This document shows positions 3,336 through 51,549 of a stretch of 64,000 nucleotides of DNA, piece after piece. The notes beneath the pieces were generated by a model. That model was not told the origin of the DNA. It made no database searches and saw only the letters and a program-made list of their open reading frames with translations. The stretch's first letter is position 1. Every line of letters starts with the position of its first letter. The stretch comes from a virus, in IMG/VR virus record IMGVR_UViG_3300005747_000263, positions 10,012-74,011 of that record. One strand, given 5' to 3'. The translations under genes were made by a program, and so were the position numbers.

Positions 3336-3422
3336 ATCTTAATCTTCCTCATCGCCTGTGATGAAAGGGATAATGTCAATGACTGGTACTTTATTCATAA
3401 TAAGTATACTCCTGATAATAAT

Positions 3423-3495
3423 TGGGGGCGTAGGGATTCCAACCCTAACTTAATTACAAGCGAAGTGCTATACCAAGCCGCGTTTGGTGGCCCCC
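3423..3495 (-). ncRNA. degenerate tRNA-like element (Thr/UGU-like loop)
   Basis: 73 nt; GGGGGC/GCCCCC-A acceptor-like stem, TAGGG-TTGGAAT-CCCTA T-like arm, GGTATAGCA and CTTGTAA resembling D-arm 3' side and anticodon loop; imperfect anticodon stem, almost no variable loop. Confidence 0.6.
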
Positions 3496-3499
3496 GTAA

Positions 3500-4030
3500 G
3501 GAAATGAAAATAGAGTTTTCTCTCAACTATTGTTATAGCGCTGTTGAGAATATAGGATTACTCTATAAACCTAAGTCAAATAATATACGTTGCATCTTCC
3601 CGATGCTAACTATACTGCATTTTGTGTACCATGTTAATAGTTTAATACCCTTTAACAATATAACGCTTTGCTATCTTTGGTAAAAAGATGCCACTCTTAA
3701 TACTTTATACTCGGTAGCCCCCGAGTCTCAAACACACTTAAATAGTGTGTGGAGAGTGAATAATTGGCGCAAGCGGCTAACTTGACTTAGGCTGATAACA
3801 AAGCGCCTAACTTTGTGTCCGTATCTCAATTAAATAACCCTAGCCAGGACTTTTAAATTTAATCAGACCAATCATTTCATTATATACTCTTTTATGAGCA
3901 ATTATCATCTCACTTAAAGAGTATAATACTTAACACGGTTTGACTCAATGTTAAGCAGAAAAGTGCCCCGACTCTAATCCAGTAATGGCGGTCGAGGACT
4001 TGGGTTTTTATTCGTAATACTTCACAGTAT
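3500..4030 (-). ncRNA. putative large structured ncRNA (B)
   Basis: No minus-strand ORF of 60 aa or more; about nine consecutive hairpins, with G-U pairs favouring the minus strand. Confidence 0.55.
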
Positions 4031-4037
4031 TCTTCTT

Positions 4038-4493
4038 TTAACTGTCGCGGACAGATTGAAGGGCACCCATGTATTCTTGGAACGAATCCATAGAATCAAA
4101 AGTGTCACCTCCGCTCATAAAGCCGAAAACTTCGCCCTTGACATCAATAGTCGCACCGGGCGTTCCATCGGCTTTAAGATACAATTCCGCCGGTAGGGGA
4201 ATTCCATCTTCCGTTGTTTCTTGACGCAATCGACGAATACTTACTTCCGTGTATTCACCTTTCGTTGGGTGCATGACCTGAGTCTTTTGCACCAAACGAA
4301 TGTGGTCGTTTCCGCGAATAAGGCGTTCGGAGAGAACATTACGTTCAATCTTTTGCCGTCCACGGGCTTTCTTTTCCAGATTAACCGCTTGGAATTTACT
4401 ATTATGAATAAATCCCAGAACGGTTCCGCTGGAATCACGGACGATAACATTGTTATCATCAATGATTGCGCCTTCGGGTAGGTTAGAAACCAT
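4038..4493 (-). CDS. hypothetical protein, possibly PC4-like single-stranded nucleic-acid-binding
   Basis: GGAGG RBS; beta-rich HIRLVQK...YTEVSIRRL...GFMSGG.TF then amphipathic C-terminal helix; fold call is pattern-based only. Confidence 0.6.
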   Translation of the reverse strand: MVSNLPEGAIIDDNNVIVRDSSGTVLGFIHNSKFQAVNLEKKARGRQKIERNVLSERLIRGNDHIRLVQKTQVMHPTKGEYTEVSIRRLRQETTEDGIPLPAELYLKADGTPGATIDVKGEVFGFMSGGDTFDSMDSFQEYMGALQSVRDS

Positions 4494-4499
4494 TTTAAT

Positions 4500-5365
4500 C
4501 CTCCATTATCCTTAATAAGAATACTCATGCCGTTAAATACCAAAACAACAACAAACCATGAACATCTACAAACAATACCTTTCCAGGTGACATGAGTAAA
4601 CTTATTAAGTAGGATAGAGGACATAAAGAGAACGATAAGTAGAAACTTACCGTTTAATCCCTTTATGCACGGATGAAGTCAGAGCAAAGACTGTTATTCT
4701 TAAACCCCATACGCCGGGTTTATCCGCTTACCTAAAGGTCCTTTTAATTAGGTAAGAAACGTTTTCAATTTTTATTCACTTAAAGCGCTACTCCTCGCTT
4801 GGTTATAATTAACAAGCAGAACTTTTAGTAAGCAAACGCCAATTTACTTTATTTCTTACCCTCATTAGTGTTATGTAAGGGGAATACATCCCTGCGGCCA
4901 AACTAACGGTACTTATTTACCTTATCGCCGTTGCGTATTTTACGCCTCTAAAATTATCTTCTTACTATACTGAAACATAAAATCCATAAAATGGTTAAGA
5001 TTTCGTAATCACTTTTATATTCCCGACAAGAGAGAATGTCACTTATCACGGAGGCGAATGTATCATTTTTATAGTCCACTACTTAAATGTAATGGACATA
5101 TGTGGCTGTCGATGCACACAATAAAACAAATACCGTACCTTAAGGTATAGTCCAGCAAGGCTGTCCAGATACTTGAATTACATATCGCGTGGCTTACACG
5201 CCTTAACCGAAATACACGGGAAGGGCGACACCTATCCCAAAAATGAACCCCGAGGGATGCATAAATGAAATAGTTATCGCGCCGCCCATCCCGCATATCG
5301 CAGATAAGACGCCACAAGACACCCTATTGGCCGGGATGCCGAAAGGTATATGAACCCCTACGTTA
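4500..5365 (-). ncRNA. putative large structured ncRNA (A)
   Basis: ORF-poor; nested long-range helices (4511-4531 with 4589-4609; 4621-4668; 4751-4760 with 4851-4860), GGAA tetraloop, many G-U pairs; TATA-like element upstream. Confidence 0.6.
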
Positions 5366-5368
5366 GGG

Positions 5369-5400
5369 TTATATAGGGGGCCGGGAACCTACATAAGGGT
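5369..5400 (-). promoter_or_regulatory. archaeal TATA-like promoter candidate for the ncRNA region
   Basis: Minus strand AACCCTTATGTA (5390-5401) and TATATAA (5369-5375); similar to AACCTTTATAC upstream of the 6918 gene. Confidence 0.45.
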
Positions 5401-5760
5401 TGCGCCACTAAATACCTTAACTCGGCCGCCATACATACAAGTAATACGCACTCAGTATCTATACAGTATAATCATAACACCATAATGATACCCTTAAACG
5501 CAACTCATGCTCACTTAAAGAGTAATTACTTCTACTCGGTACGAGTAAAGTAAGTATAATAAATCGAGGATGTAAAGTAAATACAATAAATTTTAGATTG
5601 TAAAGTAAATAACTTAAATGAATACTAATAAAAAAAGACACTCCCCGTATAATTATTCATGTTAGGTAAAGTGGGTAGAGGAGTAATTACCTTAGACTTT
5701 AGTCACAGGGAGTAATTACTATTGTTGGGATGAGGGTTTTTGGGTTAAACACCGAAAACC

Positions 5761-5870
5761 TCAGAATCGCTTTCTAAGGCACTTTCTTTACCCAAAAGGT
5801 AAGGATATACCACTATGTGCGGTAAAGTGTCTAAAAAGGCCGTTTCTGGGCTTCTGAGAGCATTTTAGAG
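5761..5870. repeat. phased ~100-bp element, copy A
   Basis: CAGAATCGCTTTCTAAGGC left arm with ~10.5-bp periodic right arm; related copies at 7851, 27522, 47311. Confidence 0.55.
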
Positions 5871-5907
5871 TAAGGGGGATAAGGTAAGATTGCACTAATG
5901 CGCTGTT

Positions 5908-6918
5908 TTAGTCCTTTTTGGCCGCGATTTGAACGTATTTTTGGACCGGAGCCTTCTTGGAAAGAAGTTTAGTCAAGTCTGTCTTAGGCAGACTAACACT
6001 TTCTCCTTCGGGAAGGTTTCCAATTGTTGGAATACGTCCATCAGCAGTCTTGAACACTTTACTGTTCTTCCGAGGACCATAAACATCATAACTCATGCGG
6101 TTGAAAAGAGACTTAACCTCTTTCTTGGCAAGATGACTAACAGCCTTACTGTTGTAATCATCTTCTTCAATGTGCTTAATCATATTATCAATGACCAAGC
6201 CATTAAAGACAGGTAGATTCGTTTGGACCCCGTTAATAACAGCATTACAGTACCGGAGTTTATTGGCATAATTCAAGAAGTCTGCCTTATCCATGTCTTT
6301 CAAGTTGGCAGGGAAATAACCATCTTTAATGGCTTTCTCCATTGTAAGTCCCAAAACATGATGGGCCACCAAGTCAAGAATCTTAGACACGAAGTAAGGC
6401 GAATAGTGACTTACACCGAGTCCGGCACCGTAAAGTTCTTTGTTCCCTGGAGCGTCTGTAAGAGAAGAAGCCCAGGTCACGCCGTGAATCGTATTAAAAC
6501 GAACGTTGGCGTGTAAATCGCGCTTAGCGACACGGACATTGGACTTAACAGACTTATAGCCGGTTTCATCCTTAAACTTAGACAAGAAGCGCTTCTTAGC
6601 GACATAATCGCTAACAGTCTCGATGACCATGTTTTTCTTATCCATGACACCCGCCTTGATTTCTTCAATAACTTTCAGGTTTTGAGCCATCAAGTAAGAA
6701 GCACAAAGGACCACAGCGTTTTCATACAACCTTTTCAGCGAGGCCGCACTTTGTTGCAGTTTTCCGGCGCTGGTGATTTTAATCTTAGGTTTGGATTGCT
6801 CCACCCAAAGATTAACATCTTTTTCGTGCGCCTTGTTCAGTTCAGCAAAAATGCGAGCATCGCGTGTGTTTTTGACATTAACCTTGTCGGTAATGTTCTT
6901 AAGTTTGTCGTTTTGCAT
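5908..6918 (-). CDS. Lys-rich hypothetical protein (336 aa)
   Basis: Long ORF with GGAG RBS and its own TATA-like element at 7037-7044; no recognised motif. Confidence 0.8.
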   Translation of the reverse strand: MQNDKLKNITDKVNVKNTRDARIFAELNKAHEKDVNLWVEQSKPKIKITSAGKLQQSAASLKRLYENAVVLCASYLMAQNLKVIEEIKAGVMDKKNMVIETVSDYVAKKRFLSKFKDETGYKSVKSNVRVAKRDLHANVRFNTIHGVTWASSLTDAPGNKELYGAGLGVSHYSPYFVSKILDLVAHHVLGLTMEKAIKDGYFPANLKDMDKADFLNYANKLRYCNAVINGVQTNLPVFNGLVIDNMIKHIEEDDYNSKAVSHLAKKEVKSLFNRMSYDVYGPRKNSKVFKTADGRIPTIGNLPEGESVSLPKTDLTKLLSKKAPVQKYVQIAAKKD

Positions 6919-7199: not shown

Positions 7200-7840
7200 G
7201 GCCCATATGAGTAATTACTCCTGGTATATACTAATATAATACTATACACATACAGTATACACTAACATAATTACTCCCGTGTCCGTATACTAATCAATAT
7301 AATACTATACAATAAGTAATTATACATAATCAAAGTATACCTGTAATATATATAATTATACATAAGAAATAATTAACTTTGATTGGGGTAATTATACGCG
7401 AATCGACAGGTATAATTGACTTTTGAGGTAAATTTAGCACCACAAAGACATACTTATGTCCACCCCCCAAGACAATTACTCCTTACCCCCCAAGGTAATT
7501 TCTCCTTATCTGTCCCTCCAATCCAAGATAATTTATTCTTACTCGGAGTAAAGTTTAAAAAACTTTACGACTCGCAAAGATTTTTAATCTTTGCTCGATA
7601 CGAGTTAGGAGTAATTACCTTTGCTCGGCGACTCTATTGTATTAATAATAAATTTTGGGGCAAGAGTAATTACCTTTGCTCGGCAGGGTGTATTTAAGAT
7701 AAATAAGCGCTACTCGGCAGGAGGGTATTTAATTTAAATAATGAATCCCCAAGCAAAAGTAATTACCTTACCCCCCTAAGGGGGCAGGAAGTTTTATGAT
7801 TAAATGACCGAATTGGTCGGTCAGGAGGAATTACCTTTGG
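7200..7840. repeat. AT-rich region with many GTAATTAC boxes and a 21-bp direct repeat
   Basis: GAGTAATTACCTTTGCTCGGC at 7609-7629 and 7664-7684; further TAATTA(C) boxes near 7210, 7268, 7316, 7387, 7759. Confidence 0.75.
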
Positions 7841-7850
7841 TTCAGACGGT

Positions 7851-7945: not shown

Positions 7946-8201
7946 TTGTACTCGCCCCGCAAGAGTTAATCGAAATACTCTCTACTCGCCGGGGATAAGG
8001 TATTTATAATATATCGGGCGGATTTTTTAAAAAAAATAAATTTAAAATTTATTATAAAAAAAATAAATTTTCACATCGTAAGTAAAATAAATAAATCCTG
8101 ATACCAAAAAAATTTAACCAATAAAATTTATTGGTTAAGAATAATAGATAGGGGGTCGGCCATGGGATCCCATGGGGAAAAGAAGAAGGGGGAAAATGGG
8201 C

Positions 8202-8447
8202 CTAAGATTCTTCAAAGGTCCCTTGGACCGACAGTTCCCCGCCACACCACTTGACGCCGTAGGCGAAGCGGTGGCGGTGGAACCGCCGGCCGCCGGGATT
8301 CTGAGCCGCGCCAGACAAGACGGGTACGGAAGGATGGAGGTTGCACGTTGCGACGGTTGTCATTTGGGCCGCCATTTTACACAACCCTTCCGTCGTCAAG
8401 AAGGAGCCCGCAACGGATAGAATCGGTAGGAACCGATACCCATCCAT
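8202..8447 (-). CDS. hypothetical protein (true start may be downstream)
   Basis: GC-rich ORF followed by a pyrimidine tract. Confidence 0.45.
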   Translation of the reverse strand: MDGYRFLPILSVAGSFLTTEGLCKMAAQMTTVATCNLHPSVPVLSGAAQNPGGRRFHRHRFAYGVKWCGGELSVQGTFEES

Positions 8448-8742
8448 CGGTCGTCACACTTCGCACTTCAACCCATCCCTTAACGAAAGATTCACCGGGA
8501 CGGATGAACCCATAATCGGGATGAACCAAGGAGCCGGTACGACCGACCACTTGGGACAATTCAACACCCAAGTTGGCCAGTTGGTCCGGCACTTTTGCCG
8601 CTTCTTCCTGTGCCCACTTGATTTCGTCGCGCATGAGGGCGTAAACCTCCTTTTGGGTCAAGCCTTCTTGACGGGCAACCCACTTCAATTCGTAGTGTTT
8701 GCGCAGTAGTTTGTAGATTTCGCGTTTGTGCATATTGTTCAA
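8377..8742 (-). CDS. hypothetical protein, possible N-terminal HTH
   Basis: LKWVARQEGLTQKEVYALM resembles helix-turn-helix; GGTGA upstream. Confidence 0.55.
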   Translation of the reverse strand: MNNMHKREIYKLLRKHYELKWVARQEGLTQKEVYALMRDEIKWAQEEAAKVPDQLANLGVELSQVVGRTGSLVHPDYGFIRPGESFVKGWVEVRSVTTDGWVSVPTDSIRCGLLLDDGRVV

Positions 8743-8817
8743 ATCCTGGTCACCGCGCCTTTCCGCGCCTGTCGCGACCGTATGGAGGGAAGAAGGGGAA
8801 AAGGGACCGGAGTCGGT

Positions 8818-9159
8818 CTAAGCGTCCAAGGACAGGCTAAGGAGTGCGTAAGCCTGTTCCTTAGTGTGTCCAGCGTCTTGAAGGGCCGCGATAGCCACTT
8901 CGTGCTGAGCCGCTTTGCGGCTTTCAATGGCCGCTTCTTGAGCGCGGACAAACCGGCCCGCTTCTTCAATCCCGGCACCGAACGCTTCTTGGGCCGCCAT
9001 GAGGAACACGTCTTGAGCCTGTTCCATCAAGTCGTTCGACTTGGAGTAGTCGGCCGCCTTGAAAGCGTCCGAAGCACGGCGAAGAAGGCCCTTGGCGGTT
9101 TCAACAGCCGTGTTTAGGCCGGAGGCGGTGGTTTGTTGTGGTGGTTGGTATTTTGCCAT
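8818..9159 (-). CDS. hypothetical alpha-helical protein
   Basis: 113 aa, Ala-rich; TATA element upstream; hairpin plus pyrimidine tract downstream (8787-8817). Confidence 0.65.
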   Translation of the reverse strand: MAKYQPPQQTTASGLNTAVETAKGLLRRASDAFKAADYSKSNDLMEQAQDVFLMAAQEAFGAGIEEAGRFVRAQEAAIESRKAAQHEVAIAALQDAGHTKEQAYALLSLSLDA

Positions 9160-9221
9160 TTTTGGTTATCCCGCCGGACCGGGTCCCGCCCAGTTCGACA
9201 AAGAAGCCATTATCGCCGATA

Positions 9222-9233
9222 GTATATAACCCT
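9222..9233 (-). promoter_or_regulatory. archaeal TATA box candidate
   Basis: AGGGTTATATAC on the minus strand ~60 nt upstream of the ATG at 9159. Confidence 0.5.
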
Positions 9234-9261
9234 ATACGGTAAGCCCAATACGTCCAGATTT

Positions 9262-9320
9262 CAGTATGGTGCAGTAAGAATCAGCACCATTCAGTACCAT
9301 GCAGAACCATGCAGTATGGG
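9262..9320. repeat. 10-bp tandem repeat (CAG at exact 10-bp spacing, six copies)
   Basis: CAG at 9262, 9272, 9282, 9292, 9302, 9312. Confidence 0.7.
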
Positions 9321-9409
9321 AACCCGTCACTCTGAATCGCCGGACCCGGCGCCGCCGTGGTAAGGTCCATATGCGCCGTCGGGAAAATTGGAATTTTTTT
9401 AGAATCAAA

Positions 9410-9557
9410 TAATTACTCCTGTATCTAAAGATAGAGATAATTACCCCTGTGTCCAGGGACTAAGATAATTACTCCTGTGTCTAAAGACTAAGTTAATTAC
9501 CCCTATGTCCTAGGACGAAGTTAATTACTTCTGTGTCCAGTGTTGGTGGTAATTTTT
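9410..9557. repeat. 28-bp tandem array TAATTACYCCTGT-[palindrome]-TAAG
   Basis: Units start at 9410, 9438, 9466, 9494, 9522 and a degenerate one at 9550. Confidence 0.9.
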
Positions 9558-9653
9558 CCCGCTCGATGGGTAATTATCTTTGCTTGGTGATGGGTTTAAC
9601 GTATTTAAGTGAAGGCTTGGTTTTTGATTCACGATTATTTTTATTGGTAATTT

Positions 9654-10622: not shown

Positions 10623-12458
10623 GTGGGTGGTAAGTTGTATGCGGCGGTTCATGATGGCTTCATGTTTGCGAGGCAAGTCAGCGATGCACTTCATAAACTG
10701 GATGCCGTTAATGATGTAACCATGAAGGGGCGCATTAATCGCCTCAAGTTTTTGAATGAGTTGCCCGTCGAAGTTAGGGAGGCGCTCCCTAGCGATGTGC
10801 AGCTTGGTTTGGAATTGAATCCTGACTTGGATACGATGTTCCTTCACCCGGAGGACCCCATGCGGGGCATTGTCGTGTCTTTTGTGGCGCGATACATTGG
10901 TAATCCGTGGAGTAACACGGAAGCGTTTGAACTGAATGACCTTCAATTAAAGATTCTTGTTTATGCACTTAGCAGTCGTTCCCTTGGTGTGCTTGCCCCC
11001 CGTGGTGTCGGAAAGTCAGTTGCTCTTGCACTCGCTGCCCTCATTTGGTGTTTCTTCTGTGCCATTGGGGAAGACGCGTTCATTATTGCTCCTACCACGA
11101 ATCAAACCGACAAAGTGTTTGCATACATTACCGACTTTATTAAAGTCGGAAAGAATAACTTCTTAATGGATGGGGACCCTAACATTGGGTACGAGGGCAT
11201 TGGTAGTATTCGTTTTGGTCAGAAACCCATGATTCACTGGCGACAGGGGTCGAGGTTGAGACCGGCGTGTGCTTCGCGCAACAATAAGGGTGAGACGATA
11301 CGGGGGCAGCAGCCTACGTTTGCGTTGCTGGATGAATCCAGTTACATTCTCGATGACATTTACACGAAGACGTTGAAGAGCGGTTTGGTTAGTAATCGGA
11401 GCGACCACGAGATTCCAATCATTGAATCTGGGACGCCTGACGCGAAGAATCACTTCTACGACTTGTTCCATAACCCGAAGATGTACAAGGAGTACATGAA
11501 GATTCACTTCGATTACGAGGACGGGATTAGGGCGGGGCGGTATACCCGCGAGAACATTGAGAAGATTATTAACGAGACTCCCGGCGGGAAGGAATCCATT
11601 GAGTTCCAATCGGAGTACATGTGTAAGTTCCCAGAGGGTGCCATGTCGTTCTTTAAGAATCTCGAATACACTTTTAGCGGGGAACACATTGAGTCGGCAC
11701 CCCTACCCGGGGTAACATACGTTGCTGGTCTCGACTTGGGTCAGAAGCAGGACAGTACCGTGTTAACTATTGGTCGGTATAGTATTGAGGATGATGGGGA
11801 CCACATTGATGTGGTTTATATTCTCGAATTGAATCCGGTTCAAGAATTGACGTATCCTCAACAGTATGCATTGATTTGTGATGAATTGAATCGGTGGCGG
11901 GTTCAGTCGTGCTGGGTTGACTTTACTGGACCCGGTATTCCCATTTATCAGTCATTGGAGACACTGGTTAGGTCTAGTTGTCCTACCGTGACGTTTATTC
12001 CTTTCAGTTTCCAGTCGAATACTAAGTATCCGAACTTCGAGAAACTGCGTTTGTACTTGCAGAATCGTCCTACGCCGCGCATCCGGTACCCGAAACTGGA
12101 TGATAATCGCGTGATGAATCACCCTAAGTTTAAGGAATTCCAGAAAGCGAAGGGTGAATTCGTGGATATTGTTCAGAAGCGCACGAATAGTGCGAATGAA
12201 AAGAACAAGTGGAAGGTTGAGCCGGCGCGTTCCCGTGGTCACGACGACTACGTAGCGAGTTGCATCTGCCTTTGTCAGGCGATTAATGAGTCGTATTCTG
12301 GTGGCGGAGTGGCAAATGCTGTCGAAAAACAGCGCAATGTTGCACAAAGAAAGGTTTCAAGTGCCTCTGCGACGACGGCCGGGCGCGCTTTAGGCATCCG
12401 AGGAGGCAATAGTATAAATAGGGGAAGAGGGCATAGTAATATATGGAGGAAAGTATAA
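10623..12458 (+). CDS. terL: terminase large subunit
   Basis: Walker A APRGVGKS, IIAPTTNQ, Walker B ALLDES, coupling motif SGTP, EYMCKF, nuclease GLDLG..QDST and HDD. Confidence 0.95.
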   Translation: MGGKLYAAVHDGFMFARQVSDALHKLDAVNDVTMKGRINRLKFLNELPVEVREALPSDVQLGLELNPDLDTMFLHPEDPMRGIVVSFVARYIGNPWSNTEAFELNDLQLKILVYALSSRSLGVLAPRGVGKSVALALAALIWCFFCAIGEDAFIIAPTTNQTDKVFAYITDFIKVGKNNFLMDGDPNIGYEGIGSIRFGQKPMIHWRQGSRLRPACASRNNKGETIRGQQPTFALLDESSYILDDIYTKTLKSGLVSNRSDHEIPIIESGTPDAKNHFYDLFHNPKMYKEYMKIHFDYEDGIRAGRYTRENIEKIINETPGGKESIEFQSEYMCKFPEGAMSFFKNLEYTFSGEHIESAPLPGVTYVAGLDLGQKQDSTVLTIGRYSIEDDGDHIDVVYILELNPVQELTYPQQYALICDELNRWRVQSCWVDFTGPGIPIYQSLETLVRSSCPTVTFIPFSFQSNTKYPNFEKLRLYLQNRPTPRIRYPKLDDNRVMNHPKFKEFQKAKGEFVDIVQKRTNSANEKNKWKVEPARSRGHDDYVASCICLCQAINESYSGGGVANAVEKQRNVAQRKVSSASATTAGRALGIRGGNSINRGRGHSNIWRKV

Positions 12459-47569: not shown

Positions 47570-47812
47570 TTACTTCATAAGTTTCCTTGCTTTAGTTACT
47601 AGTCGAGGAGTAATTACTCTTATCAACCTATCATAATGATACCTTGATATGGTTCCTTGTTCTAATTGTTTATCTAATGCAGGTAAATAACTCTTACTTA
47701 ACCACTTAATGATTTCTTTTTCTCGTTCAACGCTAAGTTTCTTATGAGTAATTACTTCTCCCTCCGTAGGAGACTGGTTAGTATTACTCTTGTTTACTGT
47801 TTTCTTTGGCAT
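47570..47812 (-). CDS. small basic hypothetical protein
   Basis: 80 aa; last gene of the minus-strand block. Confidence 0.5.
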   Translation of the reverse strand: MPKKTVNKSNTNQSPTEGEVITHKKLSVEREKEIIKWLSKSYLPALDKQLEQGTISRYHYDRLIRVITPRLVTKARKLMK

Positions 47813-48917
47813 TTCTAATATTCCTCACGTGTTTGAGTAGTAATTCTTTCTTACGGGCGGCACTATAATTATAGTGCGGGTAATTTAATTCATGGTTTCC
47901 CTTACAGTATCCCTTTGCTTGGAGGGTTTCACAGGATGGTGCCCATAATTTCTTTTTAAGCATGTTGCTTAATTGCATGTGGCTGATTTTGTAGTCGAAC
48001 TTTTCTGGGCCGCGAATTTGCCGGAATATTTCTAACATATCTTTAAGGTCGTACTCGCAACGCATTAATTCGAGGGCAATGTATGTGCTTTCTTCAAAGT
48101 TTGGATTGCTCTTCGTCATCATGTCTAGGATACAGGCACGGATTGGTTTGTGTCCGTAAGCTGTATTGGTGAGTTTGCGGAGCAATTGGTCTTTAATGGT
48201 TCGCTCTTGATAGTATTCTGTATCGACGCGGCGCAGCCTTTTATCTCGCAAGTGTTTGAGTACTGCTGGGATAATGTAATCGAAGTAACTACTTGGTTCT
48301 GGAGTGTTGTTTAACTTTCTCTTCTTCTTGGCGAGATGCATGACTGCTTCTGGCGTGTAATTGTATGCTTCCTCAATTGTGAGTGGGATGCAGTACAGGC
48401 CGCTCTTGTGGTTAATGGTGTTGGGGATGCGGCGCATTTGGGCGAAGCCATTGTTTGCTTGCATGTCGAAATCGACGCCGGATAGTTTAGCCATTTGGCG
48501 AATAATGTATTGGATAACATTTTTATCCTTCATTACGTCGAAGTCGCGGCTCAACTTGATTAAAATGTGATAGCCACTGCGACCGCTGAAAAAGATTTGT
48601 AAATTGATTTGCTTATCGGGCGTGGATTCTTTATTGCACCAATCAATGAAGTGGCGCAATTGATGCCAAGTCTTAGTATTTAACAGTTCGTGTCCCTCGC
48701 TGTCAATTTCGAGGAAGAACTTATCCATTCTGGCAGTATCATAAATGGGTGCCCCCTGTACATTGAGTTCAGTAAACTTGTACACACTCATGTACAGGGA
48801 GTCGGTGGGGTTGGCTTTGACGAATGACTGGATATCCTTTAAGTATTGTGCATCACGAACAACTCTGATACAACCTTGTCCGTTAACGCTTTTTCCTAAT
48901 TCAAAATATTCAGTCAT
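47784..48917 (-). CDS. archaeo-eukaryotic primase, PriS catalytic domain fused to a PriL-like C-terminal domain
   Basis: LEID, SGRSGYH, RRIPNTIN; C-terminal ACI...PSCETL...GYC. Confidence 0.85.
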   Translation of the reverse strand: MTEYFELGKSVNGQGCIRVVRDAQYLKDIQSFVKANPTDSLYMSVYKFTELNVQGAPIYDTARMDKFFLEIDSEGHELLNTKTWHQLRHFIDWCNKESTPDKQINLQIFFSGRSGYHILIKLSRDFDVMKDKNVIQYIIRQMAKLSGVDFDMQANNGFAQMRRIPNTINHKSGLYCIPLTIEEAYNYTPEAVMHLAKKKRKLNNTPEPSSYFDYIIPAVLKHLRDKRLRRVDTEYYQERTIKDQLLRKLTNTAYGHKPIRACILDMMTKSNPNFEESTYIALELMRCEYDLKDMLEIFRQIRGPEKFDYKISHMQLSNMLKKKLWAPSCETLQAKGYCKGNHELNYPHYNYSAARKKELLLKHVRNIRNAKENSKQE

Positions 48918-48923
48918 TTTATC

Positions 48924-49184
48924 TCACTTGTATGGTTTCAAACCATTGACTAAGTGTGTAACATAGAATGTTACTTTCCTAGTCTTCCATGCTCGACGAT
49001 TCTTTAAATAATTACCGTCGTCATCTGTTACGTACTGTAAGTAGTACCCTACTAAACCATTAGTATCACTACCGATATGGAGCCATACGTCACATATATC
49101 TTCGATATAGTTACCTCCGTCGTCTAAGACGATGAATGATTCCGTACTACTCCCTACCTGTAGTGATACCGGTACTCTGGACAT
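48924..49184 (-). CDS. hypothetical protein
   Basis: 86-aa ORF in operon. Confidence 0.5.
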   Translation of the reverse strand: MSRVPVSLQVGSSTESFIVLDDGGNYIEDICDVWLHIGSDTNGLVGYYLQYVTDDDGNYLKNRRAWKTRKVTFYVTHLVNGLKPYK

Positions 49185-49478
49185 TTACACCAGTTTATTT
49201 AGCATTGCATTCACAACTGGTTCGTACTCGATGTACTTGCCGAAGTCGTGGATGAATACGTTATCGATACCGCTCTCCTTGATGTGGTCTTCTAGGAAGC
49301 GTGGTTCCCCATTCCAGTCAATGTTATGACTGCTTAGTTTGTTTTGGGGGTCGTCCACCGCTTTAATACCAATGTCGTAGTGGTACGATACTTTCTTTCC
49401 TTTACGGATTCCTACGGTTAATCGTAAGTTGCTTTTAATGTGTCCGAACTGTTCCATGTATTTATTTTGATTTACCAT
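49185..49478 (-). CDS. hypothetical protein
   Basis: 97 aa, GGAG RBS. Confidence 0.55.
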   Translation of the reverse strand: MVNQNKYMEQFGHIKSNLRLTVGIRKGKKVSYHYDIGIKAVDDPQNKLSSHNIDWNGEPRFLEDHIKESGIDNVFIHDFGKYIEYEPVVNAMLNKLV

Positions 49479-49604
49479 TATAATCTCTCCTCTACGATGT
49501 CGATGACATCCTTAATTGCGTCATTGTAACCCAGTACATATAATGGGTCGCCTAATGAACTATGTTCTCTCTTCATTGAATGTAGAAACTTGATAATACT
49601 TTGC

Positions 49605-50742: not shown

Positions 50743-50977
50743 TTGGGATTCCTCCCGAAATTCTAACTACTATATTATTATTACTTGGAACTTGTCTCTC
50801 TAAATACCAAATAGCTTTCCTGATATCTTCCTCGAAGTTACCCTTGTGTTCTGCTCTTGCAATATACTTTAATGCATTACCAAGGCAGAAGTTAAGATTC
50901 CAATCTTCGATTACATCGATGACTTCAAACTTGCCCGTATTATAGTGAGCCGGGTGGTTAACGTTTTCTTCACTCAT
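50729..50977 (-). CDS. DUF3310-like protein
   Basis: VNHPAHY, EVID, GNALKY..RA..K, EDIRKA.WYL. Confidence 0.85.
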   Translation of the reverse strand: MSEENVNHPAHYNTGKFEVIDVIEDWNLNFCLGNALKYIARAEHKGNFEEDIRKAIWYLERQVPSNNNIVVRISGGIPNDSS

Positions 50978-51549
50978 TGCACCACTTCTAACTCAGGACT
51001 TGATTCCAAGATGTGAGTAAGAATCTCCATCGCAACAATAGCTTGATGCTTAGCATCGTCCAAGCCATTGTGATGCGTTCCTTCACGAGTAATACTCTTC
51101 TCGATAGATGGGTACAAGTTCTTCAGTGTACGGTAGCACCGTTCCTGATAGAATCTCCATGGTGTAGGAGTATTCGTACCGGTTGCGGCACTAACTAATT
51201 TATATGAATGATTTAGGATAGCACAATCGAATGTCGGAGCATTACCCCATACATGCTTGATGCCTTTACCCAGACAGAACTTTCTAAACTCAAGCATTGC
51301 ATCGGTAAAGTCTTCTTTACCTTTCAATTCTTCTTGCGCTTCCGTAGACTGATTTATCCACCACAATACCGTATCGGCACCAACAGTTGCTCCGGCGGCT
51401 TGAGCCGACCGAGGATTGATTCGCACATGGAATTCATCCGTAACACCGTCTTTCAGGTTGAATACGACAGCACCAATTGCAGTAACTACTGCGGTGCTAA
51501 CATTATCCATAGTTTCAATATCAATCATTAAATGATTATCGTTATACAT
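50974..51549 (-). CDS. DEDDh 3'-5' exonuclease (DUF5051-like)
   Basis: MIDIET, WGNAPTFD..IL, HNGLDDA. Confidence 0.85.
   Translation of the reverse strand: MYNDNHLMIDIETMDNVSTAVVTAIGAVVFNLKDGVTDEFHVRINPRSAQAAGATVGADTVLWWINQSTEAQEELKGKEDFTDAMLEFRKFCLGKGIKHVWGNAPTFDCAILNHSYKLVSAATGTNTPTPWRFYQERCYRTLKNLYPSIEKSITREGTHHNGLDDAKHQAIVAMEILTHILESSPELEVVQ

Follow-up and report, generated by a model that had tools for sequence, protein, structure and literature searches.

A gene-free, strand-specifically structured kilobase upstream of a small orphan gene in an uncultivated tailed virus: a candidate translationally locked leader

Hairpins that sequester the ribosome binding site (RBS) of phage mRNAs are found in the T4 lysozyme e and I-TevI early transcripts and in the lambda N leader, which is opened by RNase III; these hairpins comprise tens of nt, in leaders of 200 nt or less. 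Closure of an mRNA over a long distance through its 5' end is known from the fold-back inhibition of hok mRNA and from the start of the MS2 maturation gene. RNase III processing stems also enclose the rRNAs, and sites in T7 early mRNA are likewise processed. GOLLD and ROOL are RNAs of phages and prophages and are often located near tRNA islands (bioRxiv 10.1101/2024.12.08.627333). Here we analyzed a 64,000-nt window, bases 10012-74011 of the 74,011-bp IMG/VR record IMGVR_UViG_3300005747_000263 of an uncultivated virus, in which about 1 kb of the minus strand, from about 5504 to 4465 in window coordinates, is predicted to be highly structured. This structure abuts, and partly includes, the translation start of a gene encoding a protein of 151 amino acids (aa). 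We give roughly even odds (about 0.5) to the reading that the structure is a cis-acting 5' leader of ~1.0 kb that would lock initiation of the 151-aa gene and would probably be opened by processing. Taken as a whole, the structure is a strong candidate, short of a demonstrated RNA gene.

The initial annotation had proposed, from the letters of the DNA, a structured RNA of about 860 nt on the minus strand of 4500-5365, and had suggested comparing the folding of both strands with shuffled sequences. RNAfold predicted -282 kcal/mol for the minus strand of this interval compared to -221 +/- 5.4 for its shuffles (z-score -11.2), whereas the plus strand gave -201 kcal/mol (z -3.8), and folding is thus not equal on the two strands. 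The minus strand of 5511-4440 had a z-score of -8.0 against 40 dinucleotide shuffles. As a control, 627-nt windows were compared across the genome. The target window gave -8.4 on the minus strand and -2.4 on the plus strand, and the z-scores of 18 other windows, both strands included, lay between +1.2 and -6.4, making the target the most extreme of 19 x 2. G-U pairs made up 52 of the 354 pairs of the minimum-energy fold and 32 of the 238 pairs with a probability (p) of at least 0.8, and there was only one A.C 1x1 mismatch, the type that becomes G-U on the opposite strand. The fair test of asymmetry is the folding of each strand against its own shuffles, and its outcome agrees with the G-U count. 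The strand-specific energies and z-scores, together with the G-U and A.C counts, support RNA-level structure of the minus strand rather than a DNA cruciform, as had been suspected from pairs that are G-U on the minus strand and A-C on the plus strand.

The structured stretch lies within a gene-free interval (4494-5907) flanked on the minus strand by a 336-aa open reading frame (ORF; 6918-5908) and the 151-aa ORF (4493-4038). The longest ORF inside the stretch comprises 82 aa from a TTG start, and its codon score of -0.20 is non-coding-like; the codon log-odds of the flanking genes are +0.34 and +0.35. In a sliding codon score over six frames, the maximum was 0.18 in the stretch versus 0.47-0.54 in true genes, and reassignment of stops (TAG as Q, TGA as W, or TAA as Q) opened no long frame. 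A coding sequence under an alternative genetic code was rejected on both of these results. The stretch is without coding capacity. Phage genomes are usually densely packed with genes, and a kilobase that is both free of genes and strand-specifically structured is therefore probably under selection.

We folded constructs spanning 5511-4440, 5546-4400, and 5511-4038. The elements of the predicted fold, ordered from the 5' end of the minus-strand RNA apart from the arms that close it, are as follows.

5489-5504, minus strand: 5' arm of helix H1, predicted to pair with 4480-4465 through 9 bp, a 2x2 loop, and 5 bp
5504-5496/4473-4465 and 5493-5489/4480-4476, minus strand: the H1 helices, ensemble p 0.61-0.96 with either assumed 5' end
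4465-4480, minus strand: 3' arm of H1, covering codons 5-10 of the 151-aa gene, +14 to +29 from the A of the AUG
5473-5488/4862-4875, minus strand: H2, 4 + 10 bp (5488-5485/4865-4862 and 5482-5473/4875-4866), p 0.89-0.92
5409-5429/4894-4915, minus strand: H3, 21 bp across 535 nt, p 0.92-0.93, -27.5 kcal/mol
5401-5353, minus strand: element Ia, inside H3
5198-5312, minus strand: Ib, a 115-nt irregular hairpin of 46 bp with ~11 G-U pairs, three 1x1 pyrimidine mismatches, and a CUCG loop
5175-5127, minus strand: Ic, inside H3
5074-5097, minus strand: Id, a 9-bp hairpin (5097-5089/5082-5074) with an AUUUAA loop, p 1.00, z -6.9 minus and -4.3 plus
5057-4925, minus strand: Ie, inside H3
4750-4861, minus strand: domain II, a 112-nt branched hairpin after H2, z -3.5 minus and -2.1 plus
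4727-4669, minus strand: IIIa, outside H3, with helix 4721-4716/4707-4702
4621-4668, minus strand: IIIb, a 20-bp hairpin (4668-4658/4631-4621, 11 bp, and 4653-4645/4640-4632) with a UUCU loop, p 0.99
4500-4620, minus strand: domain IV, an interrupted hairpin of 7 + 9 + 10 bp (26 bp) with a 57-nt G/U-rich apical loop, p 0.97-0.99

All of the helices listed in the initial annotation were recovered by RNAfold on the minus strand, most of them with p 0.97-1.00. The GNRA hairpin that it had drawn as ACCU-GGAA-AGGU fared otherwise, for the string is present at 4588-4577 and the hairpin is absent from the minimum-energy fold. The region 5190-5340, which had been described as a GC-rich domain of multiple stems, is indeed strongly structured, but it consists mostly of the single hairpin Ib. 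With pair probabilities of 0.92-1.00 and presence in 56% of the ensemble, Ib was the sole overwhelmingly strand-specific element, at -61.8 kcal/mol on the minus strand (z -8.0, reached by 0/200 shuffles) and -29.0 kcal/mol on the plus strand (z -2.2). For IIIb, the z-scores were -8.6 on the minus strand (-21.1 kcal/mol) and -5.3 on the plus strand (-11.8 kcal/mol). The closing helix of domain II (4861-4851/4760-4750) has 11 bp and p 0.97. In domain IV (-37.9 kcal/mol), the 9-bp helix 4609-4601/4519-4511 and the 10-bp helix 4598-4589/4531-4522 each have p 0.99, and the arms alone gave -38.7 kcal/mol, a value reached by 0/2000 shuffles. H3 is made up of 13 bp with 3 G-U pairs (5429-5417/4906-4894), a 1-nt bulge, and 8 bp (5416-5409/4915-4908), and its 5' arm overlaps a degenerate copy, at 5406-5426, of the CCGAG box described below.

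Element-level z-scores were obtained with 200 shuffles for each element and strand, and on this basis the excess stability resides in five local elements, Ib, Id, II, IIIb, and IV. The other four of the nine sub-elements, Ia, Ic, Ie, and IIIa, were no better than shuffled sequences on the minus strand (z -1.2 to -1.6), and their plus strands were not significant either. RNAduplex applied to whole segments was uninformative, as it bridged them with huge loops, and long-range pairing was assessed by span-limited folding and by arm shuffles (2000 shuffles, post hoc, restricted target windows) instead. The arm shuffles gave 12/2000 for H1, 24/2000 for H2, and 1/2000 for H3.

The base of domain IV bears directly on the downstream gene. 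The 151-aa gene has a GGAGG Shine-Dalgarno (SD) sequence at 4504-4500, 6 nt ahead of the ATG at 4493. The 7 bp at the base of domain IV join CCUCUAU (4620-4614) with AUGGAGG (4506-4500), so that GGAGG is completely paired. Its pairing with 4620-4616 was predicted with p 0.97 for three different assumed transcript ends. An SD paired within a stable fold, the hallmark of an RBS-sequestering leader, is therefore what the model predicts here. A clamp is also predicted just downstream of the AUG, formed by H1 or, in constructs ending at 4470 where the 3' arm of H1 is incomplete, by 4738-4729.

The downstream gene itself appears genuine. Codon log-odds of the 151-aa ORF were +0.35 in frame versus -0.24 and -0.67 out of frame, and codon usage together with the strong SD mark it as a real gene. 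Its product matched only itself among 5.8 billion proteins, had no Pfam or PHROG match, and gave no usable match in the ESM Atlas. AlphaFold2 modeled it with a predicted local distance difference test (pLDDT) score of 37, too poor for a structure search. The protein is acidic (isoelectric point 5.6) and so is no obvious RNA binder.

In the reading we favor, leftward transcription of the minus strand from a promoter at about 5580-5512 would proceed through the stretch into the 151-aa gene, and the leader would fold into successive hairpins of very high stability (Ib, Id, II, IIIb, and IV). Hairpin IV would pair the whole SD with an anti-SD sequence 110 nt upstream, and the extreme 5' end of the leader may also pair with codons 5-10. 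Through these two pairings the nascent mRNA would be translationally locked. The lock would be opened by removing or melting the anti-SD strand, most likely when an endonuclease processes the long, nearly perfect duplexes, of which IV has 26 bp, Ib 46 bp, and H3 21 bp. These three would be RNase III-like substrates, and after a cut inside IV the SD would be held only by a short, unstable helix. An RNase III step is suggested by analogy with the behavior of the T7 and lambda leaders. We infer the transcript ends, the lock in vivo, and the opening event from the predicted structure and its setting.

Two features upstream of the structure are candidates for the start of this transcript.

5553-5581, minus strand: candidate promoter 1, a sigma-70-like TTTACT-17-TATACT with 9/12 consensus matches, start near 5546
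5510-5543, minus strand: start box, CCGAG-N-GTAATTAC followed by the 15-mer TACTCTTTAAGTGAG (5524-5510)

Candidate promoter 1 sits within three 27-28-bp AT-rich tandem repeats (5545-5619). The 15-mer TACTCTTTAAGTGAG occurs in two exact copies, the second of which (3923-3909) directly follows a better sigma-70-like match, TTGAGT-17-TATACT (3948-3920). Because of the alignment with this second copy, an alternative RNA start may lie near 5512. H1 and the SD hairpin were predicted for both assumed starts, 5546 and 5512. The second 15-mer copy heads another gene-free stretch (3910-3336, minus strand) ahead of the next small genes, and its presence at both long leaders suggests a repeated design of promoter, long leader, and small gene. 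An internal promoter that would bypass the SD hairpin was not found; a shared late-promoter motif within this hairpin was sought by eye in 25 upstream regions, and none was seen. There was no significant terminator between the structure and the 151-aa gene, and the hairpins after the 336-aa and 151-aa genes were no better as terminators than shuffles.

For the gene-free stretch at 3336-4037 on the minus strand, we observed z-scores of -4.0 on the minus strand and -4.1 on the plus strand, far less strand-specific than the main structure, and predicted closing helices at 3882-3867/3387-3371.

Several points weigh against the locked leader. It rests on one sequence and on thermodynamic prediction, and the promoter assignments are consensus matches only, so these remain candidates. 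Limiting the pair span to 250 nt in 5511-4440 still gave a z-score of -6.4 versus -8.0 without the limit, and the gain from longer-range pairs was -25.9 kcal/mol compared to -18.6 +/- 4.2 in shuffles (z -1.7). Of the ~860-nt unit first proposed, the minus-strand structure stands, its status as a single unit is conjectural, and its ends lie instead at about 5504 and 4465. A segment at ~5244-5218 is as good a partner for the initiation region as is the 5' end; because of this competitor and of the restricted target windows of the shuffle tests, H1-H3 are plausible but unproven, and one closed fold is hypothetical. Neither strand of domain IV is the more stable (z -4.7 minus, -4.8 plus), and it could thus be a DNA-level inverted repeat. 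The host may lack RNase III; the nearest GenBank terminases (25-27% identity) include that of an archaeal virus. Lastly, 1 kb is far more RNA than an SD lock requires.

The size of the leader argues for something more than a lock, and an autonomous or excised large noncoding RNA is therefore the main rival explanation. Such an RNA of ~0.6-0.9 kb, either the H2/H3-closed core (5488-4862) or 5510-4621 ending at IIIb, would have its own function as a scaffold, decoy, or multimeric particle, with occlusion of the SD incidental or secondary. We consider this possible, if on the unlikely side; it is compatible with the leader, and the two readings are not exclusive. Its size and phage setting resemble those of GOLLD and ROOL, and the only tRNA genes called by ARAGORN, tRNA-Arg (425-500) and tRNA-Leu (2452-2534), lie 2-4 kb downstream on the same strand, with none within 4465-5510. 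The nested closing helices H2 and H3 have p ~0.9, and H3 was matched by only one of its 2000 arm shuffles, but the overall long-range gain is not significant, and of the interior sub-elements half do no better than shuffles. The inner stem of IIIb with its U-rich 3' strand forms a terminator-like site (4654-4631) where such an RNA could end, but it is weak, and sites of this type are no more numerous than expected by chance. The fold offers a single possible GNRA loop, and a loop-loop pseudoknot candidate was not found in it.

Searches against known RNA families also bear on this rival. With cmscan, all 4227 Rfam 15 models were run at gathering thresholds over the window, and only a tRNA elsewhere was matched; within 4465-5510, there was no match to transfer-messenger RNA, RNase P, signal recognition particle (SRP) RNA, or 6S RNA. 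Permissive filters at E <= 10 over 4300-6100 yielded five noise matches to small nucleolar RNA, microRNA, and leader models (13-20 bits, E 1.2-8.1). GOLLD was covered only through this all-family scan, as were OLE and HEARO, and none was matched. ROOL (RF03087; 574 positions, gathering threshold 99.1 bits) gave no match at E <= 10 in the 74-kb genome, with control genomes that were without ROOL. The structure, by these models, belongs to no curated RNA family. The covariance-model searches agree with the earlier remark that no group II domain V, RNase P, or SRP signature is recognizable, and the novelty that a match to GOLLD, ROOL, OLE, HEARO, or an intron would have removed stands.

Attempts to find relatives of the region were similarly negative. 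No DNA match to the stretch was found by blastn against GenBank phages, and there is no paralog of it in the genome. The 336-aa, 151-aa, and terminase proteins, and an alignment of terminases, were also used to search viral, metagenome, and genome collections for homologs, and the region was not recovered. In alignment-driven scans, IMG/VR, JGI metagenomes, and GTDB genomes yielded only distant terminases and one 2-kb fragment. This metagenome contig (L083) carries the only close terminase relative of the collection scans, at 52% identity, and stops short of the region. Terminases at 49-56% identity are present on Logan contigs of up to 19.8 kb; the contigs encoding P0002, P0007, P0006, and P0003 measure 19.8, 14.3, 10.5, and 8.7 kb. 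The 336-aa protein has one relative only (P0009, 27% identity), from which a further search was empty. Motif scans for relatives were also empty, and a search for sequencing runs listed none, RNA data included. Four matches to genome contigs were rejected as no better than chance; the best of them, 45 nt at 87% identity in L164, lies within a 532-aa ORF that is aminoacyl-tRNA synthetase-like by eye only.

A bolder form of the autonomous reading, to which we give somewhat less credence still, is that the core (5488-4862) or the whole of 5510-4621 is the first member seen of a new class of large phage RNAs that fold autonomously. The core would be excised at its closing duplexes and act in trans, for example as a scaffold, as a decoy of a host nuclease or defence system, or as a multimeric particle of the GOLLD or ROOL kind, and its excision would simultaneously unlock translation of the downstream orphan gene.

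A second rival holds that there is no global fold, and that the stretch carries independent processing, stabilizing, pausing, or antitermination hairpins of an early leftward transcript, comparable to T7 RNase III sites or HK022 put RNAs, with neither translation control nor a free-standing RNA function. The predominantly local excess of stability, held in five elements and largely retained at a 250-nt span, is in keeping with this, as is the presence of hairpins and repeated boxes in other intergenic stretches of the arm (7990-6919 and 4037-3336). However, the SD is specifically and completely paired, five strong hairpins before one small gene are denser than the known processing sites of T7 and lambda, and no curated cis-element was matched. 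We find this rival doubtful.

A DNA-level element is very unlikely. It would consist of inverted repeats with a role in replication, packaging, or protein binding, or be what is left of a small inverted-repeat mobile element, with the RNA fold as a by-product. On either strand, IV and IIIb make good inverted repeats (plus-strand z -4.8 and -5.3), a 31-nt inverted match at 81% identity is present, and palindromic GTAATTAC boxes abound in the surrounding 4 kb (48 versus 12 expected), which also contains an AT-rich tract. On the other hand, Ib loses more than half of its energy on the opposite strand, G-U pairs outnumber A.C mismatches by 52 to 1, the plus-strand z-score of the whole region is only -3.8, and there are neither terminal duplications nor a second genome copy.

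That the 151-aa ORF is carried by a self-splicing intron, degenerate or novel, or by another mobile ribozyme is close to excluded: structured RNA does flank both sides of a small orphan ORF whose sequestered SD recalls the control of T4 intron-encoded endonucleases, but Intron_gpI (RF00028, which did match control genomes), Intron_gpII (RF00029, domain V/VI), and group-II-D1D4-1 (RF01998) gave no match at E <= 10 across the 74-kb genome, no host gene is split, the flanking ORFs being complete, separate genes and the 336-aa ORF ending at its own stop with promoter-like and AT-rich DNA in between, and the 151-aa ORF has no endonuclease or maturase domain in Pfam or PHROG.

The virus that carries the candidate leader is a tailed virus encoding a T4-type large terminase (10623-12458), a portal, a major head protein, and a tape-measure-like protein, as well as a family B DNA polymerase and a class II ribonucleotide reductase. 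It represents an isolated lineage. Its terminase has at most 27% identity to anything among 50,697 GenBank phage records, its head protein has no match in the same records, and for most of the small proteins a family match is wanting. An Rv2179c-like DEDD 3'-5' exoribonuclease is encoded at 50974-51549 on the minus strand (Pfam E 5.5e-48), which possibly bears on RNA processing by this virus. The record is classed as having direct terminal repeats; on direct comparison, the first and last 50-800 bases differ, and the terminal repeat may be shorter or trimmed. Genes to the left of ~9600 are carried on the minus strand, and the coding density of this arm is unusually low.

Examination of the leftward arm revealed further repeated sequences. 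The palindrome GTAATTA(C) is present in 48 copies versus 12 +/- 3.5 expected, mostly in non-coding parts of the arm (5518-5543, 5683-5719, 7211-7848, and 9402-9591), and also at 47610-47755, 38662, 39185, and 55125. A subclass reads CCGAG(C/T)A(A/G)AGGTAATTACTCYT on the minus strand and, as judged by eye, follows an TTTATTATA-like AT box by ~15-16 nt. The palindrome boxes could be phage-specific promoters, operators, or iterons. At 9402-9541, where the leftward and rightward gene blocks diverge, there are five 28-bp units in tandem, and every unit has a TAATTAC box and a short dyad with arms that vary from unit to unit. The 2-kb contig L083 has, at 85-190 and upstream of a rightward gene block, three repeats at ~40-bp spacing of the palindromic motif CATTGAnTCAATG plus AAAGG, an analogous array of different sequence. 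An extremely AT-rich tract (7990-8130 and about 7400-7700) lies beside the cumulative GC-skew minimum, and the tract and the repeated boxes around it together make a candidate replication origin. A GC island at 8100-9300 (52-59% GC versus 35-47% elsewhere in the genome) looks like foreign DNA and contains, on the minus strand, coding-like small ORFs of 113 aa (8818-9159) and 121 aa (8377-8742) without Pfam match. Elsewhere, the minus strand of 48800-49426 folds 36 kcal/mol lower than its shuffles; the gap at 48918-49604 (z -4.3 minus, -3.7 plus) probably contains small genes.

As a leader, the structure would be a translational lock of unusual size and would give entry to the regulation of a wholly unknown viral lineage. 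As an autonomous RNA, it would join, as a new class, the very few large structured RNAs of phages with unknown functions. Under either reading, it is a concrete and well-delimited target for chemical probing and reporter assays.

Compared with the systems described at the outset, the structure shares with GOLLD and ROOL a length of several hundred nt, a phage genome with same-strand tRNA genes nearby, many helices, and the lack of an associated protein family. It differs from them in giving no covariance-model match, in having no recognized conserved core or multiple pseudoknots, and in being a single sequence, without a family, that is fused directly to a gene whose RBS it is predicted to occlude. 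As in RNase III processing stems, the 21-bp H3 is formed from arms 535 nt apart and encloses a structured core, and the helices are long, irregular, and rich in G-U pairs; unlike the stems of rRNA precursors, H3 has no rRNA or known stable RNA inside, and cleavage here is hypothetical. As in hok mRNA and MS2, the predicted H1 joins the very 5' end to the start of a coding region, but it does so over a span of ~1,040 nt with thermodynamic support only, and outside a toxin-like or RNA-phage context. The RBS hairpins of T4 and lambda are matched by the pairing of the full SD with an upstream complement in a long hairpin and by long duplexes that are possible RNase III targets. Unlike in those systems, the lock stands at the end of a leader of ~1 kb that has four other strong hairpins and possibly a second lock by the 5' end, and mechanistically this leader would be a variant, of exceptional size, of the RBS-sequestering phage leaders.

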